A DNA stretch of 30,330 nt. Source: Candidatus Omnitrophota bacterium (lineage in GTDB: Bacteria; Omnitrophota; Gorgyraeia; Aquiviventales; Aquiviventaceae). How positions within the stretch are numbered: the first letter of the stretch is position 1; the number at the start of each line of letters is the position of its first letter. The DNA lies in contig JACPAW010000141.1 of assembly GCA_016180605.1 (NCBI GenBank), positions 1-30,330 on the forward strand, written 5' to 3'. The position numbers and the translations under genes were made by a program. The notes under the pieces are model-generated. The model made no database searches, was not told where the DNA came from, and was given only the letters and a program-made list of their open reading frames with translations. Shown in pieces: positions 521-5,994 of the stretch.

Positions 521-533
521 TTAGGGGCTCTTA
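521..533. repeat. 13-bp copy of the MITE terminal repeat plus TTA target (possible scar)
   Basis: TTAGGGGCTCTTA is identical to 25173-25185. Confidence 0.5.
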
Positions 534-2573
534 AACCCGGGCGACGGTTCGCGCAAACAGGCGGATAAGCAAGCGGGAGAAGAAAAGCGAAGCGAAGGTA
601 ATAAATATCGAGAGTTCTTGTATGCCGTTAAACACCACACCGGTGATATCCAGATAGTGGATCCTTCCCTGCCTTAAGTGGATCAACGATTGTTTCCAGA
701 AACGCTGCATCGATCGGCGCGTCCACGTCAAAGAGTGGGAACAAGGATTCCACCGCTTCAACCATAAAAGCAACCGGGAAGGAATGGGATTCGACAGCGG
801 CGGCACGTGCGGCATATTTCGGTACAGCACCCCTACCGCTTGCTGGTAGGCATGCTGAATCTCAGAAACGCGCATCCGCCGCCATCCTCGAACACTCGAA
901 GGAAGCCGTTGCAGCTCCTCAACGACGCGCTGTTCAAGGACAGAGCGCTTGCGCGTCTGCAACCAAACCTCCTCCATCTCCAGGGCTAATCGCGGCCAGA
1001 GCCTGGCGTAGCGCCAGAAGTCACAAAGCCGGTGTTTCAGGTACCTCCAGGGAGATTCGATCGGAAATCCAGGCCGGCGTTCCTTCCGCGCTTTGAGGCG
1101 TACGAAGCCGTGGATCATCGGATGACCTTGCTCGACCTCCCAGGAATTCTTATACCAGATAAAGTTGGCGAAAACCGCCCAGTAGTTCTCGGGATTCACG
1201 CGCCAGAGGATCCGTTTCATGTTCTTCAGGCTGTAGAAGCGCTTCCAGGCTTCGTTGTAGGCCTGCGTCCATTCTTCACGGGACATCTTAGGATGCCGCG
1301 TCGTCGCATGGAAGGAGTCGTAGCGATTCAAATCGGCGTCCAATTCAACTCCTTGTCGTACTAATACGCTGTGGTCCTGAGAACCCGGCAGCGGAGTGAG
1401 CATGAAAAAAGAGGCCTGCTCTGGACCCAGATCTTCTATGAGCTGGTCGATGTCCTGGCGAACGGAGGAGAGGGTATCGAACGGAAACCCGATGATATAG
1501 GCCGCATGCGTATTAATCCCGGCCTGCCGATAGGCCTCAAAGAGGGCACGGAAATTCTCAAGTTTATTCTGACGCTTCCCGGCCGCTTCCAGGTTCTTGG
1601 GATTGAGACTCTCCAGCCCAATGAATACCTGGGAACAACCCGCAGCTTTGGCTTTCTCAATGAAACGAGGCAGTTTGTAGGACTGCGTGTCCGCTTGCAC
1701 CATAAAACCAATGTGGATTCCCTCTTGCTGCCGCAGCCGGATTAACCCATCCAGAATCGCTTCCCAGTACTTGTTCCGGCAGAAATTATCATCCGTGAAG
1801 AAGTAAGAACCGATGCGATGGTGGTGGTAGTTTTCCCGAATGGCCTGAAGCAGTCGCTCGACATCACGAAACCGCATCACTCGACCTTGGACATTGATGA
1901 CGGTGCAGAACGAGCAGTTGAAAGGACAACCACGCCCGCAGTCTAAAGTGCTGAAATTCGGTGAGACAAAACGTTTGGCATAGGGTTTGCTGATCCTGGG
2001 AAGAGGAGCGGCTTGAAGCGCAGGAGGTTCCCGCAGAAAATTATATATCGGATTCAGTTTTCCGTCGACCGCATCCCGTAGAATCGCTTCCCAGCGGCCC
2101 TCGATTTCTCCAGCCACAACGCTTACTCCGGCATCCAACAGTGCTTTGATTTCAGATGGCAACTCGGGCAGCATCGCTAGAGAGCCGCTGACATGAAACC
2201 CGCCGATTAAAACATCGATTTTACCCTTACGAAACTCCATGGCTAAATCGTTTGCCCGCGCAAACTGGTTGCTCTGCACCCCCACCAAACAAACGATTGT
2301 TTTGGTGTCGCGCCGGCGGCTACGCCTTAAGATGCCCGACACATCGACTCGTTGCACCGTTTCATCGATGAGCTTGATCTGCCAGTGAAGCCTGGAACCT
2401 AGAACCCCACGCTGACGCACATCCTCCGTTAATCCATAGAGGCAGGTCAACGTGTTGCTGGGCAGCACCCCTTTCCAATATCGGATCACATAGCCCTGCT
2501 CGTCGTACTTCGAGGGCTTGATCAGATAGATGGCCAGTCGTCTAACGCTAAGACTTCCGGAATCACGCGTCAT
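531..2573 (-). CDS. Cobalamin-binding-domain radical SAM protein (class B methyltransferase-like), substrate unknown
   Basis: GRGCPFNCSFC (CX3CX2C), FFTDDNF, VFIGLES, AAYIIGFPFD, FFMLTPLPGS; N-terminal B12-binding-like region (VLIGGFHVSG). Start moved to ATG 2573 because the longer ORF overlaps the upstream gene and spans a -10 element. Confidence 0.85.
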   Translation of the reverse strand: MTRDSGSLSVRRLAIYLIKPSKYDEQGYVIRYWKGVLPSNTLTCLYGLTEDVRQRGVLGSRLHWQIKLIDETVQRVDVSGILRRSRRRDTKTIVCLVGVQSNQFARANDLAMEFRKGKIDVLIGGFHVSGSLAMLPELPSEIKALLDAGVSVVAGEIEGRWEAILRDAVDGKLNPIYNFLREPPALQAAPLPRISKPYAKRFVSPNFSTLDCGRGCPFNCSFCTVINVQGRVMRFRDVERLLQAIRENYHHHRIGSYFFTDDNFCRNKYWEAILDGLIRLRQQEGIHIGFMVQADTQSYKLPRFIEKAKAAGCSQVFIGLESLNPKNLEAAGKRQNKLENFRALFEAYRQAGINTHAAYIIGFPFDTLSSVRQDIDQLIEDLGPEQASFFMLTPLPGSQDHSVLVRQGVELDADLNRYDSFHATTRHPKMSREEWTQAYNEAWKRFYSLKNMKRILWRVNPENYWAVFANFIWYKNSWEVEQGHPMIHGFVRLKARKERRPGFPIESPWRYLKHRLCDFWRYARLWPRLALEMEEVWLQTRKRSVLEQRVVEELQRLPSSVRGWRRMRVSEIQHAYQQAVGVLYRNMPHVPPLSNPIPSRLLLWLKRWNPCSHSLTWTRRSMQRFWKQSLIHLRQGRIHYLDITGVVFNGIQELSIFITFASLFFSRLLIRLFARTVARV

Positions 2574-2594
2574 GAGAGAATGAAAGCATGTTTT

Positions 2595-2603
2595 ATTATA
2601 CCA
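2595..2603 (-). promoter_or_regulatory. extended -10 promoter of the radical SAM gene
   Basis: TG-G-TATAAT, 21 nt upstream of ATG 2573; no SD in between. Confidence 0.55.
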
Positions 2604-2662
2604 GGACTTGGGAATGCGAAGATAACGATTGGTGGCGTGGTTGGTTACCTTCACGCAGACGG

Positions 2663-3847
2663 TCAGTTTAACTGGCGCCAACTGAGGACAACTACCTGGA
2701 TGGGATTGCTGTTCCTGGCGGGATTCAGGGCATCATCGTAAATGTTCAAGGCTTCATCGTAGTGGACATCAGCACTTCCCCGAACGATGATTTCGCGGCC
2801 AATCACGGCGCCATAGAGATCGCCGTTGCCGAGGATTTCGACTGTTGCGTCGGGGGCGTTCAACTTTGCAAAAAGATCGGCATCTCCACCCATCGAGACG
2901 CGTAAACCCTTCACATGGAGAGTGAGATTCGTGGGAAGCTTTTCCGCAGTCTCAATTCCTCCCTTTCCAGAAACCTGAATATCCTCTTCCACATACACTT
3001 GGGCAGGTCCGATAAAGACCAGCTTGCCATGTCCTGAAATGCGAATCTCACGAAATCGATAGAGACCACCCTCCAATGCCACCACTTCATGTCCTGAAAT
3101 TAAAAGGCGCCCACCGTCGGGAAGCTGGGGCATCTCTACCGGCTCTAGCGCGGTCCCAACCTCCGCTACACGGACTTCACCCTCAATCCATGACCAGGTC
3201 TTTGATGTCTGCCAGAGGGTTTTCTCCGGATCGCTGCCTGGACCTAAGATCACATCCCCAAGGATGGCGACTCTACCCATGAGAGCCACCGCTTTTCTCT
3301 CATGCCCATTGGTCACAACCTGAAGGTTCCCTCGACTCTCCTTGAGACCGTACGATCCTTGACGCGAGTTGTAGCTATCCACCCTTACTCCCCTTTCGTC
3401 CTCCTCCGTATCATCGCCAAAACTGTCAAATCGGATGGATCGCTCACCTAATACCCCATAGCCAGGACCGGCAACTTTCACCCTCTGGACTATCGCTTCG
3501 ATCGTTCTTGAGGTATAGCCGAAGGCTGTCGGATCGTTTGAGGGGTAAAAACCTGTTGCCCGAACTCTCCACTGAGAAGACTGCGCTGGACCCACCCAAA
3601 TGGAATACCCACCGGAACCGTTTTCAATATCCGTATAGTCCACACCCATGTAATCGGGATCTTCCTTCAGCGAGTGAATCGCCACGTCAAGACCAGCCTC
3701 GCTTAGGTAAAATGCCTTCATCTGATGCCAGTCCCTTAGAGTAGCCCGCTGTGCCACTGTGGAGTAGGTCAGCAAGCCGCCGCTCCAGACCAGCAAGGTT
3801 CCTGCCATCACCAATGAAAATATGAGTGCGCTCCCGTGTCCGTTCAC
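2663..3847 (-). CDS. PilX/PilK-like type IV minor pilin with C-terminal beta-rich domain
   Basis: Short leader then G|SALIFSLVM hydrophobic helix (prepilin-like); KAFYLSEAGL motif typical of PilX N-termini; C-terminal IIVRGSADVHYDEAL. Confidence 0.75.
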   Translation of the reverse strand: MNGHGSALIFSLVMAGTLLVWSGGLLTYSTVAQRATLRDWHQMKAFYLSEAGLDVAIHSLKEDPDYMGVDYTDIENGSGGYSIWVGPAQSSQWRVRATGFYPSNDPTAFGYTSRTIEAIVQRVKVAGPGYGVLGERSIRFDSFGDDTEEDERGVRVDSYNSRQGSYGLKESRGNLQVVTNGHERKAVALMGRVAILGDVILGPGSDPEKTLWQTSKTWSWIEGEVRVAEVGTALEPVEMPQLPDGGRLLISGHEVVALEGGLYRFREIRISGHGKLVFIGPAQVYVEEDIQVSGKGGIETAEKLPTNLTLHVKGLRVSMGGDADLFAKLNAPDATVEILGNGDLYGAVIGREIIVRGSADVHYDEALNIYDDALNPARNSNPIQVVVLSWRQLN

Positions 3848-3907: not shown

Positions 3908-5605
3908 TCAACGCATCGGTACGATGCGGATGGAATCCGCCCCTTTTAAGGGGATGCCAGAAATGGTCAAACCTTCCAGAATGCCTTGCGTGTCTCCTGT
4001 TTGAAACGCGGTCCGTTGGGATTCGAAATGACACACAAGATCCAAGCGGCCATCCGCGTTCACATCCTCTGGCTTACAGAACACCAGGCTCTGTTCCGTT
4101 CCCAGCCGGCCGAACGTCAACGTGCTCTGCTTGACCACCTCCGGTGCCTTAAATCGATTGGTTGATAGGATAGCCACAGGAATCTTTCCCGGACTTTTTG
4201 GATTGATGGGATTCTCAAGCGACCCTGGCTTGATGTCAATGGGAACACTCAGGGGAGCTTGGGTGGGTTGGATGGCATATTGCAATAGCATAAGATCCGA
4301 TTGTCCCTCAACGTTACCCCCTTCCGAAAAGCTCTTCGAGTCACCGACTGCGTAAAGGTAAGACCCAACACGTTGTACTGCCCATGCGACATCATTTTCT
4401 CTGCCACCGTAGTAATGGGTTGAAAAGATCGAACCATCGGCCGGATTCAATTCCAACAAGAACGCGTCTTGCTTGCCGACTCCAAAACTGGAAGTGGTAC
4501 CTACGACGTAGAGTCGCTGGTTCTCCGGCGCGGTGCGGGCATGGTCATTCACGGTAACCCCGTAGGCTTGATCATCCGCTGGCCCACCCCACGTTTTACT
4601 CCATAAGAGATTTCCGGACTCATCATATTTCAGTATGACACCATCCATACCGCCGTTTGGACCATTCTTGATCGTTCCCACCACGTAGAGGTCCACCGCC
4701 GTAGATTGATACCGCTTTGAGGAAACCAGCGCCATTGCTCCACGCCATCCGGGAATAAAACCAGGATGGCTGCGGACCCAGATGAGGTTGCCCACATCGT
4801 CGTATTTCCACAACGCGATTTTCATAGCGTTGGAATCCGTGTAGGGATAATGGGTCATCCCGGCAACGTAGACGTAGCCGTTGAGGTTAGTGGCCGCACT
4901 CCCAAAACTGCTCATGAACCATCCCGTGTTGCCTAACACACGACTCCATCGCAGGGTGCCGGAGCCATCGTACTGGGCAAGAACGGCTGCGTTGTTTGCC
5001 CCGTTGGCCTGCGCGTAACCCGATGCATAGATGTAATGAGAGGCGCCGCTGCGGTCCGGCCCGTAGGTTACCGCTAAGAAGGATTCATTGCCTCGGTAGG
5101 TGAAGAAATTAGGCTTCGCCAACCATTCTGCTCCTCCAACACTGGACCCTGTAGCTCCCGTGAGTGGAAATTTAACCAGCACGCTTTTGTGTTCCTTTCC
5201 CCCAAATCCGTCTTCCGTCTGTGACCAGCTGCGGCCAGCAAAAAAGACTCCCCCTCGAGTTCCCACAACAGAGTCAAATACTTCGCTATTGACGTTGCCG
5301 GAACCATTGGCAACGTGAGGCCAGTAAGCTGTCCACTCCAGCTGCGGCGAACCATCCTTCGAAGAGAGCGTGTAGTGAAGCCCAATGGACTGACCCCTCA
5401 GAAGCGTTTCATCGACTCCGGAGAGATACACATCCGAGGCGTTGTGATAGGAAATTGCCGTTCCACGCTGGTTACCGCTACCCCCGTAAAGTACGGCCTT
5501 CTGAAATTTCACTCCCCCGTTTTCCTCCGCGTTACCGATCAAACCCCCTCCAAAGAAAACGACCGATGCAAAAAGCAGTCTGGCAATGCAAGGTATCCCC
5601 TTCAT
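3908..5605 (-). CDS. Secreted beta-propeller repeat protein with C-terminal IDIKPGS domain
   Basis: Signal-peptide-like N-terminus. Repeated G.VYVAG/LYVVG...KYD.SG.L.W blades. C-terminal IDIKPGSLENPINPKS...DVNADGRLDLVCHF (Ca-binding loop-like). SD GGGAGGG. Confidence 0.75.
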   Translation of the reverse strand: MKGIPCIARLLFASVVFFGGGLIGNAEENGGVKFQKAVLYGGSGNQRGTAISYHNASDVYLSGVDETLLRGQSIGLHYTLSSKDGSPQLEWTAYWPHVANGSGNVNSEVFDSVVGTRGGVFFAGRSWSQTEDGFGGKEHKSVLVKFPLTGATGSSVGGAEWLAKPNFFTYRGNESFLAVTYGPDRSGASHYIYASGYAQANGANNAAVLAQYDGSGTLRWSRVLGNTGWFMSSFGSAATNLNGYVYVAGMTHYPYTDSNAMKIALWKYDDVGNLIWVRSHPGFIPGWRGAMALVSSKRYQSTAVDLYVVGTIKNGPNGGMDGVILKYDESGNLLWSKTWGGPADDQAYGVTVNDHARTAPENQRLYVVGTTSSFGVGKQDAFLLELNPADGSIFSTHYYGGRENDVAWAVQRVGSYLYAVGDSKSFSEGGNVEGQSDLMLLQYAIQPTQAPLSVPIDIKPGSLENPINPKSPGKIPVAILSTNRFKAPEVVKQSTLTFGRLGTEQSLVFCKPEDVNADGRLDLVCHFESQRTAFQTGDTQGILEGLTISGIPLKGADSIRIVPMR

Positions 5606-5644
5606 GGTGATTCCCCTCCCGCGTAACCTTTCCCGACCGGGTAT

Positions 5645-5677
5645 AAAAAATCCCCATCCGAACCACTCGGATAGGGA
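5645..5677 (-). terminator. Intrinsic terminator in the leader of 3908..5605 (riboswitch expression platform)
   Basis: UCCCUAUCCGA-GUGGU-UCGGAUGGGGA (11-bp stem) followed by U6. Confidence 0.85.
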
Positions 5678-5707
5678 CTTCTGCGGTGGTTAAGGCACTT
5701 CCTCTCT

Positions 5708-5797
5708 GTTTCGGCAGCTAGGCTACCTTGGCGCATGCTGTAGGCCCTATGGCTTTGCGACCCTGCCTTTCGGCACCCGCCGCATCGTTTCAGCGGG
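5708..5797 (-). ncRNA. c-di-GMP-I (GEMM-I)-like riboswitch aptamer with divergent 5' half
   Basis: UGCC-GAAA-GGCA hairpin, GGGUCGCAAAGCC junction, AUAGGGCCUA...AGGUAGCCUAGCUGCCG P3 arm. Lies upstream of a terminator and of surface/pilus genes. Confidence 0.75.
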
Positions 5798-5922
5798 CCC
5801 GCCACGATCTGTGGCGCAGGTGTGCTCTTATCGTTCAGAGCTCTTACGAACCGAAAACGCTGAGGGCAGTCTTTGAGGGCAATCAATCACTGAAGGCTTG
5901 TCTGAGGGTTATTACTTCTCCA

Positions 5923-5951
5923 ACCTTACCTGACCCAACAATAAAAAGCAA
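5923..5951 (-). promoter_or_regulatory. candidate sigma70 promoter for the riboswitch-containing leader
   Basis: TTGCTT (5951-5946), 17 nt, TAAGGT (5928-5923). Confidence 0.4.
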
Positions 5952-5970
5952 GAGGGGGGTGAATTCGAAT

Positions 5971-5994
5971 TTCACTCCTTGGTGTAGGCGCCGA
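5971..5994. repeat. 24-bp direct repeat, copy 1 (att-like)
   Basis: TTCACTCCTTGGTGTAGGCGCCGA is 22/24 identical to 12232-12255. Confidence 0.75.

Follow-up and report, generated by a model that had tools for sequence, protein, structure and literature searches.

In Vc2, a riboswitch of the c-di-GMP-I class (GEMM-I, Rfam family RF01051; c-di-GMP, cyclic di-guanosine monophosphate), A47 is the base that intercalates between both bases of the ligand, and C92 is the Watson-Crick partner of one ligand guanine. Variants with A at position 20, i.e., GEMM-Ib and bispecific riboswitches, are still filed by Rfam under RF01051. The GEMM-Ib riboswitch Gs1761 of Geobacter has a six-nucleotide (nt) J1/2 (A9-A14) just 5' of P2, in which A14 is the ligand selector, together with A41 in J2/3 and G74-C75 in J1/3 (PMC6274999), and its A14 corresponds to G20 of Vc2 (PMC6274999, PMC6140456). 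Here we describe a related element in a 30,330-nt stretch of DNA from a Candidatus Omnitrophota bacterium (contig JACPAW010000141.1; the whole stretch is called the window), where it precedes genes for a secreted protein and a PilX-like protein on the minus strand. As judged by alignment and covariation, positions 5840-5704 (-) are a complete GEMM-I aptamer. The class itself is thus known, and by the same comparisons two features are variant: the ligand selector is A, and P2 forms a four-way junction owing to a recurrent hairpin-pair module. The element resembles Vc2 and the RF01051 consensus in its three-helix junction, six-nt J1/2, GC/GC pairs, A47, C92, GNRA loop on P2 and receptor-type internal loop in P3, and differs from them in the A at position 20, in two extra P2 hairpins (43 nt) and in CAC/GUC for AAA/GAC.

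A preliminary description of this locus had proposed an RF01051 search, which returned a match at 5836-5710 (-) with 42.6 bits, above the gathering cut-off of 35 (E = 2.6e-5 in the window search and 2.8e-7 in the genome search). The alignment runs over model positions 1-87 of 87 with a 49-nt insertion within P2. RF01051 is the sole Rfam family at or above its cut-off in the window, and this site is among 11 GEMM-I matches in the organism's own assembly (1.39 Mb, 76% complete). In our labels this genome is G000 and G0xx are relatives' genomes, C denotes a contig and L a fetched locus.

The aptamer had been placed at 5708-5797 on the strength of GEMM-I-like 3' two-thirds, and these are all present: the GAAA stem at 5774-5765, the CGCAAAGCC junction at 5759-5751, the CCUA../..AAGG parts of P3 and GCUGCCG at 5718-5712. 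That span, however, holds only the 3' two-thirds of an element that properly extends over 5704-5840. The 5' third had been called divergent, with GCGGCGG (5783-5777) replacing GCAAACC, but this sequence belongs to an inserted hairpin, Hb, where it spans the end of the loop and the 3' strand, and the equivalent GCACACC is found at 5825-5819, 43 nt further 5'. The actual 5' third reads, in order, CUCUG (5840-5836), AA, CG (5833-5832), AUAAGA (5831-5826), GC (5825-5824), ACA and CCU (5820-5818). By this alignment it is not divergent, and the alignment is canonical once the 43-nt P2 insert is recognized; the aptamer had looked divergent because a two-hairpin module of that length sits in one arm. 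P1 had likewise been described as only about 2 base pairs (bp) long, its true 5' strand having been missed. It comprises 5+2 bp, CUCUG/CAGAG and CG/CG, with a 2x3 internal loop between them, and compensatory changes are found in orthologous leaders: GUCUG/CAGAC in G041 and G044, and CUGUG/CACAG with UG/CA in G050. Within the three-helix junction, P1, P2 and the arms of P2 covary and P3 is aligned by Rfam; in the orthologues from G042 and G044, P3 is near-identical. When P1, P2, P3 and the inserted hairpins are modelled together, every pair is canonical, and the GAAA loop (5771-5768), the CCUA/AAGG loop and the 3+3 bp that restore the canonical length of P2 are present in the sequence.

GGUC does stand in place of GGAC, as had been noted, but it is no sign of decay, being the regular partner of GCACACC in the family. 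In the family census, every listed GGCACAC aptamer carries GG(U/C)CGC and every listed GGCAAAC aptamer carries GG(A/G)CGC. Two unpaired-looking core positions covary strictly across the family (GCACACC with GG(U/C)CGC, GCAAACC with GG(A/G)CGC), a pattern suggesting that the middle base of CAAAC contacts the base just 5' of CGCAAAG in a non-Watson-Crick manner.

The insert consists of two hairpins, Ha and Hb (Table 1). Without 5817-5775, P2 would read CCUGCC-GAAA-GGCAGG, which is canonical, with 6 perfectly paired bp and a GNRA loop; with the insert in place, its pairing pattern is that of a four-way junction, formed by the 3-bp base, Ha, Hb and Hc, the last being a GAAA-capped arm of 3 bp. The hairpin CCCGCUG/CGGCGGG, earlier thought to compete with the aptamer, exists (5797-5791 with 5782-5776) as a part of this insert and not as a competitor. 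When the leader was compared with relatives by BLAST, its 5' half including the insert was 73-79% identical in six other genera, the matched sequences being paralogous riboswitches of the same architecture. In a MAFFT alignment of ten sequences, 93.1% of cells were paired and two-sided changes occurred at 12 of 22 pairs, whereas the observed pairing was reached by 0 of 500 shuffles and fell to 37-54% in slid controls. With a covariance model derived from this alignment, about 50 full-length riboswitch matches of at least 43 bits were found in 24 of the 35 family genomes. For 30 homologues on the covariance-model alignment, 97.5% of cells were paired (slid controls, 38-52%) and compensatory changes were seen at 21 of 22 pairs, counts that are inflated by the fitting of this alignment to the model's own structure. 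The Hc loops displayed for these homologues are GNRA, which argues that the tetraloop contact has been retained.

The two-hairpin insert is absent from all five orthologous leaders. Furthermore, the whole P2 of the window, with its base and Hc arm, is closer to the insert-bearing paralogues than to the orthologues, so that a gain by recombination between paralogous riboswitches appears at least as likely as a fresh insertion.

In the RF01051 alignment, consensus position 11 (G) falls on A5826. The geometry is that of Gs1761, with a six-nt J1/2 ending in A5826 and with the equivalents of A47 (A5756) and C92 (C5714) kept; like the Geobacter GEMM-Ib riboswitch, the window aptamer combines A at the selector with an otherwise unchanged pocket. 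The preliminary description had sought the selector at U5784 or G5781, both of which lie inside the covarying hairpin Hb (in its loop and 3' strand, respectively), and would have held a canonical alignment with G at this position and normal c-di-GMP binding to be ordinary. The alignment did prove canonical, but the selector is A.

A sequence-pattern search of the 35 family genomes found selector A at 2 sites (G018:C42 and G041:C141) and, with G in the same pattern, selector G at about 95 sites across 29 genomes. The window riboswitch and G018:C19, which the pattern misses for their long P2 arms, raise the A count to four, and the former is the only one in its own genome with A at the selector. 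Among the orthologous leaders of the first downstream gene, which encodes a 565-amino-acid protein, the selector is G in G041, G042, G044 and G050 and A in G018. In a maximum-likelihood tree of this protein (9 rows, midpoint root), G018 and G041 are sisters (100/100) and the window genome branches outside both, so that on this tree selector A arose at least twice within the orthologue group. The riboswitch sequence including A5826 is identical in contigs of four groundwater metagenome runs, which belong to one study and may include the source sample. Among named relatives, the closest match to the PurH encoded in the window comes from a Candidatus Omnitrophica metagenome-assembled genome, with 64% identity.

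Two further observations concern the selector. Near-identical aptamers at G041:C141:29-98 and G041:C37:12530-12599 differ at the selector (A vs. G) and at one other base, and their flanks differ; the pair represents either paralogues or a mis-binned strain contig. A pyrimidine, C, occupies the selector in two four-way-junction GEMM-I aptamers, L019:890-971 (G025, of another family; ..AAAC GC ACACC) and L086:209-327 (G009; ..GAACC GC ACAC).

What an A at the selector implies for the ligand can be judged from described variants. Vc2 G20A binds c-di-GMP at 53 nM and cyclic GMP-AMP (cGAMP) at 120 nM, compared with picomolar affinity of the wild type for c-di-GMP, and natural A-variants are often bispecific, Cbe 1-2 binding c-di-GMP better than cGAMP (PMC6140456). 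Therefore, A alone predicts a relaxed pocket, not cGAMP selectivity. The signature of the Hypr GGDEF enzymes is Ser or Thr for Asp at position 348 together with GGDEF (PMC6456294). No Hypr GGDEF was found in the own, 76%-complete genome, where Asp stands at the Hypr position in all five GGDEF domains (contigs C21, C24 with two and C157 with two), nor in G018, G041, G042, G044 and G050, where it does so in 27 of 27. No SMODS-family protein was found in the own genome either, and a DncV-like family search gave no match but, having no positive control, is uninformative. Two things set the window's aptamer apart from the GEMM-Ib riboswitch of Geobacter: its orthologues carry G, and neither the own genome nor the five relatives yielded a Hypr GGDEF or any other cGAMP synthase. 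Since only canonical diguanylate cyclases and no cGAMP synthase were found, c-di-GMP is the likelier ligand; that it is sensed at lower affinity and with relaxed specificity seems probable to us, and cGAMP as the ligand unlikely.

A true 3',3'-cGAMP riboswitch of the GEMM-Ib type, served by a cGAMP pathway in this lineage through a not-yet-recognized enzyme, nevertheless deserves weighing. The combination of selector A with an unchanged A47 and C92 characterizes the cGAMP riboswitches of Geobacter, this A arose twice in the orthologue group while being very rare elsewhere in the family, and P1, receptor and terminator are intact, hence there is no decay; moreover, two real Ser+GGDEF enzymes of Hypr type occur elsewhere in the phylum (L218 and L219, below). 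We hold this explanation to be improbable, however, as Asp stands at the Hypr position in 32 of 32 GGDEF domains from six family genomes, including G018 with its two A-type riboswitches, as no SMODS protein was found in the own genome, as close orthologues keep G, and as both Vc2 G20A and Cbe 1-2 bind c-di-GMP equally well or better. Of the preliminary proposal of a divergent c-di-GMP-I-like switch with possibly altered specificity, the class and the non-canonical selector thus survive and the reasons given for it do not; an altered or relaxed specificity of the window aptamer is possible.

The two enzymes just mentioned came from a search of 301 phylum genomes with the degenerate DNA pattern FKxxN[ST]xxGH, whose hits were mostly noise apart from these two real Ser+GGDEF enzymes from another class. 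The enzymes encoded at L218 (G216:C45) and L219 (G248:C45) combine Ser at the Hypr selector with a GGDEF motif (FKRINS(T/A)LGH ... VGGDEF) and are candidate cGAMP synthases in Omnitrophota.

The hairpin pair is not confined to GEMM-I. Partial model matches with Ha and Hb only occur outside this class, e.g., just 5' of ribosome-binding sites (L192, L200, L202 in G023:C44, and G000:C71:3666-3743), at L202 directly after a tRNA gene. A molybdenum-cofactor (Moco) riboswitch, L193:185-377 (G010:C13; RF01055, 60.3 bits), has a 50-nt insertion exactly at the module, which sits in its small CC..GG terminal hairpin. The own genome holds about six module copies, four or five of them inside riboswitches; model matches number 38 in G023 and 22 in G021, counts that include canonical riboswitches, and stand-alone copies exist in several relatives. 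Copies outside riboswitches also share the conserved stems and a GCAGUG-like part of the Hb loop. L194 (G021:C84) has flanks like those of L193 and two module copies, and at L195 a 14-nt direct repeat (CCACAGAACCACAG) lies on either side of the module.

Like the dispersed palindromic repeats of the REP/REPIN/BIME kind, the module is a short hairpin pair found at many unrelated transcribed sites and gained or lost between relatives. Unlike them, it always occupies the same P2 position in GEMM-I, its helices covary like those of a structural RNA domain, it numbers only about six copies in the own genome, and none of these stands by a Y1 transposase gene. A link between the module and Y1 transposases was considered: Y1_Tnp genes were present in five of five genomes checked, but around each of the three in the own genome, 900 nt to either side are free of module copies.

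The module might instead be a functional accessory domain, such as a protein-binding platform or a stabilizer, that gives the leaders carrying it a second input. Its presence at the same site in about 50 riboswitches of 24 genomes, the hairpins kept by compensatory changes, the conservation of the stems and of part of the Hb loop outside riboswitches, and its recurrence in a second riboswitch class all speak for such a role. However, the riboswitches that precede orthologues of the first gene do without it, copies after a tRNA gene and beside the ribosome-binding sites of unrelated genes recall dispersed repeats, and in the window copy the base of Ha is mismatched and the Hb loop has diverged. 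We regard a functional accessory domain as quite unlikely. Equally little weight is given to a bolder proposal, in which the module would be a mobile or recombining cassette that settles in peripheral helices of riboswitches (P2 of GEMM-I, the Moco hairpin) and in other Omnitrophota leaders, would have been co-opted as a four-way-junction domain (e.g., a protein-binding second input), and the recurrent G-to-A change would reveal a hidden cGAMP-like signal, although no cGAMP synthase has been recognized in this family of the phylum.

An intrinsic terminator follows the aptamer, as the preliminary description had reported; a simple pattern scan missed it, folding revealed it, and it is conserved in five of five orthologous leaders. 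The 23-nt linker that separates it from the aptamer can pair with 5830-5818 in the minimum-free-energy fold. Complementarity between AACCAC and GUGGUU is real, but its suggested function as an antiterminator is not supported, as the pairing touches one nt of the 3' arm of the terminator and is not kept in the orthologues. The earlier model as a whole (a divergent aptamer at 5797-5708 with a 2-bp P1, a selector at U5784 or G5781, and this antiterminator) has on its side the GEMM-I match of the 3' two-thirds and the six-nt complementarity. It is extremely improbable all the same, because the 5' strand in the full canonical alignment is 5836-5816, because 5784 and 5781 belong to a covarying inserted hairpin, and because the antiterminator overlaps a single terminator nt and lacks conservation. 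Two other antiterminator candidates were discarded: AUAGGG (5750-5745) with CCCUAU (5676-5671) was seen only in the truncated fold of the window, and the P2 3' strand with the terminator 5' arm paired no better than shuffled arms.

In the paralogues on C54 and G018:C19, the 5' arm of the terminator is the 3' end of the aptamer itself, the ON design of the Geobacter pilM riboswitch. In the window, by contrast, aptamer and terminator do not overlap and can coexist, which together with the phylum, Omnitrophota, distinguishes it from the pilM ON switch. Aptamer and separate downstream terminator also coexist in the c-di-GMP OFF switch Cd1 of C. difficile (PMC9262584). Cd1 differs in having an antiterminator formed by the aptamer 3' strand and the terminator 5' arm, and no such pairing stands out in the window. 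The coexistence shared with Cd1 leads us to lean toward OFF (ligand leading to less read-through), a direction to which we would give roughly even chances; ON appears distinctly less likely, and an absence of terminator control less likely still.

One could also suppose that the riboswitch is decaying, with the G-to-A change and the insertion as lesions and the leader reduced to a constitutive attenuator. Two departures from the orthologues in one aptamer, a terminator in all predicted folds and the weakened P1 of the other A-bearing orthologue (G018) would fit such a course. Decay is very unlikely, however, as P1, the GNRA loop, the receptor and all remaining nucleotides that contact the ligand or make tertiary contacts are intact, the insert occupies a site used by many conserved riboswitches, and the sequence is fixed in four samples.

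Thus, the reading that we favor, and consider probable as a whole, is a GEMM-I switch, most likely a relaxed c-di-GMP sensor, with a four-way-junction insert in P2. Between them, the P2 base and the Hc arm would rebuild the canonical P2, 6 bp long and capped by a GNRA loop, which docks on P3, and the pocket should therefore form in spite of the insert. The latter would be a copy of the hairpin-pair module recurring in Omnitrophota riboswitches and elsewhere, gained in this lineage. The A-selector pocket would be of a kind able to bind c-di-GMP as well as 3',3'-cGAMP, with c-di-GMP the most likely ligand in vivo, at lower affinity and with relaxed specificity. Ligand binding would then set the frequency of transcription past the terminator into an operon that encodes a secreted propeller of the SBBP type, a DUF7305 protein resembling PilX and perhaps a radical SAM enzyme.

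Several observations weigh against this reading. The Rfam-consistent fold lies 10 kcal/mol above the minimum-free-energy fold, which is usual for aptamers that need tertiary contacts and yet lends no support, and the inflated pair counts of the 30-homologue alignment belong here as well. The terminator appears in every full-length fold, whether or not the aptamer is formed, and among the best duplexes between the terminator 5' arm and the aptamer in six leaders, shuffles were at least as good in a proportion of 0.14-0.92. The own genome, at its level of completeness, could hide a cGAMP synthase. Finally, A recurs in one orthologue group while about 97% of the family riboswitches keep G, and this recurrence could reflect selection for a different ligand and not affinity tuning.

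The coordinates of the leader and of the genes behind it are collected in Table 1. The 565-amino-acid protein has no Pfam match; it shows similarity to an NCBIfam SBBP-repeat lipoprotein (E = 1e-8, below the cut-off) and to the CylK propeller (E = 3e-10). Orthologues of its gene occur in 8 family genomes and are preceded by an orthologous riboswitch in 5 of them. The SBBP-like similarity and the DUF7305 match of the second gene agree with the earlier view that the switch governs a secreted propeller and a PilX-like gene. The radical SAM gene overlaps the stop of the second gene and is possibly in the same operon.

Table 1 Features of the GEMM-I leader and its downstream genes, in window coordinates
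Feature	Position	Strand	Basis and remarks
P1 distal helix, 5' strand (CUCUG)	5836..5840	-	Pairs with CAGAG 5708-5704; all pairs canonical
P1 proximal 2 bp, 5' strand (CG)	5832..5833	-	Pairs with C5713, G5712; matches RF03167 consensus P1
J1/2, six nt (AUAAGA); last nt A5826, putative ligand selector (Vc2 G20 / Gs1761 A14)	5826..5831	-	RF01051 alignment
P2 5' strand below the junction	5818..5825	-	Rfam alignment; pair counts on both alignments; G5825 C5824 with C5757 G5758, then ACA, then C5820 C5819 U5818 with G5762 G5763 A5764
43-nt inserted two-hairpin module, Ha + Hb	5775..5817	-	Missing in five orthologous riboswitches; covariation; Ha 5816-5811 with 5800-5805, loop 5810-5806; Hb 5797-5791 with 5776-5782, loop 5790-5783; boundary ambiguous by 3 nt (UGC repeated on either side)
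Hc, distal P2 arm, GCC-GAAA-GGC (GNRA tetraloop 5771-5768)	5765..5774	-	All three pairs covary
P2 3' strand: A5764 G5763 G5762, GUC, G5758 C5757	5757..5764	-	Rfam alignment; canonical pairs
A47-equivalent, A5756	5756	-	Conserved CGCAAAGC, Rfam-aligned; J2/3 A41 of Gs1761
P3 with tetraloop-receptor-type internal loop (CCUAC ... CAAGG)	5716..5755	-	Rfam alignment
J1/3 (GC); C5714, C92-equivalent	5714..5715	-	Rfam alignment; J1/3 G74-C75 of Gs1761
P1 3' strand: CG (5713-5712), AAA, CAGAG (5708-5704)	5704..5713	-	Orthologue comparison; canonical pairs
Linker between aptamer and terminator, 23 nt	5681..5703	-	Not conserved among orthologues
Intrinsic terminator: stem 5677-5667 with 5661-5651, loop GUGGU, U6 5650-5645	5645..5680	-	-23.4 kcal/mol
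Ribosome-binding site GGGAGGGG (5620-5613) and ATG (5605-5603)	5603..5620	-	Sequence; list of open reading frames
First gene: 565-amino-acid secreted protein, weak SBBP beta-propeller similarity	3908..5605	-	Profile searches
Second gene: 394-amino-acid DUF7305 protein, N-terminal hydrophobic segment (PilX-like)	2663..3847	-	PF23981, E = 2e-13; translation
Third gene: 716-amino-acid B12-binding-type radical SAM protein	531..2681	-	PF04055; NCBIfam B12/radical SAM families all below cut-offs

Upstream of the riboswitch, four imperfect NCCYTCAR direct repeats (ACCCTCAG, GCCTTCAG, GCCCTCAA and GCCCTCAG) were observed at 5858-5907 (-), spaced by 13-17 nt, and some 20 nt separate the last from P1. 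Every orthologous leader is preceded by two or three copies of GCCCTCAG, and 5858-5907 is the only place in the own genome with two GCCCTCA within 30 nt; the repeats may be an operator or an unusual promoter element. Further 5', at about 5940-5978 (-) and just past an RCC1/PA14 gene, there is a palindrome rich in A and T (GUGAAAUUCGAAUUCAC), and after it come a run of C and UUGCUUUUUAUU. It is probably the terminator of the RCC1/PA14 gene, and the riboswitch operon would therefore have its own promoter.

GEMM-I riboswitches are widespread in the family. All 35 genomes were positive, with 409 RF01051 matches at E <=0.001 and 1-27 matches per genome of 0.7-2.2 Mb. A larger class of about 300 nt, represented by G000:C190:3435-3700 (L031), L013, L015, L016, L017 and L018, combines the P2 four-way junction seen in the window with a 70-76-nt P3 insert that holds a conserved GGGCGAGCGCUGGAGAAGCGCA; both the P3 insert and a 5' GGGAGCCGAU are possible pairing partners of its conserved 3' tail (GCUUCUGAGGGCGCUUUGG ... 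AUCGAGCUCCC). A second insertion site was also seen in GEMM-I riboswitches of the own genome, where two hairpins lie in a junction strand between GGGA(C) and GCAAAG. Such inserts occur on C160 (L006), C129 (L010), C54 (second aptamer, L007:1744-1811) and C66, the last with both kinds of insert. Within the literature library searched, no paper connected Omnitrophota with riboswitches in more than passing.

The basic nature of the element is unchanged by these findings: it is a member of a known riboswitch class before surface and pilus-type genes. A GEMM-I aptamer with a module-built P2 four-way junction is a natural test of how much foreign structure the arm of a riboswitch tolerates, and the sharing of the module with a Moco riboswitch and with the flanks of ribosome-binding sites makes it a case of joint evolution of structured repeats and riboswitches as well. 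Among near-identical orthologous leaders, the selector is G in some and A in others, which offers a clean natural pair for telling affinity tuning from a ligand switch. Insert-bearing riboswitches are barely detected by standard models (42.6 bits here, with several paralogues below the cut-off), and the c-di-GMP regulon of Omnitrophota, very large with 5-27 riboswitches per genome of 1-2 Mb, is therefore under-annotated.

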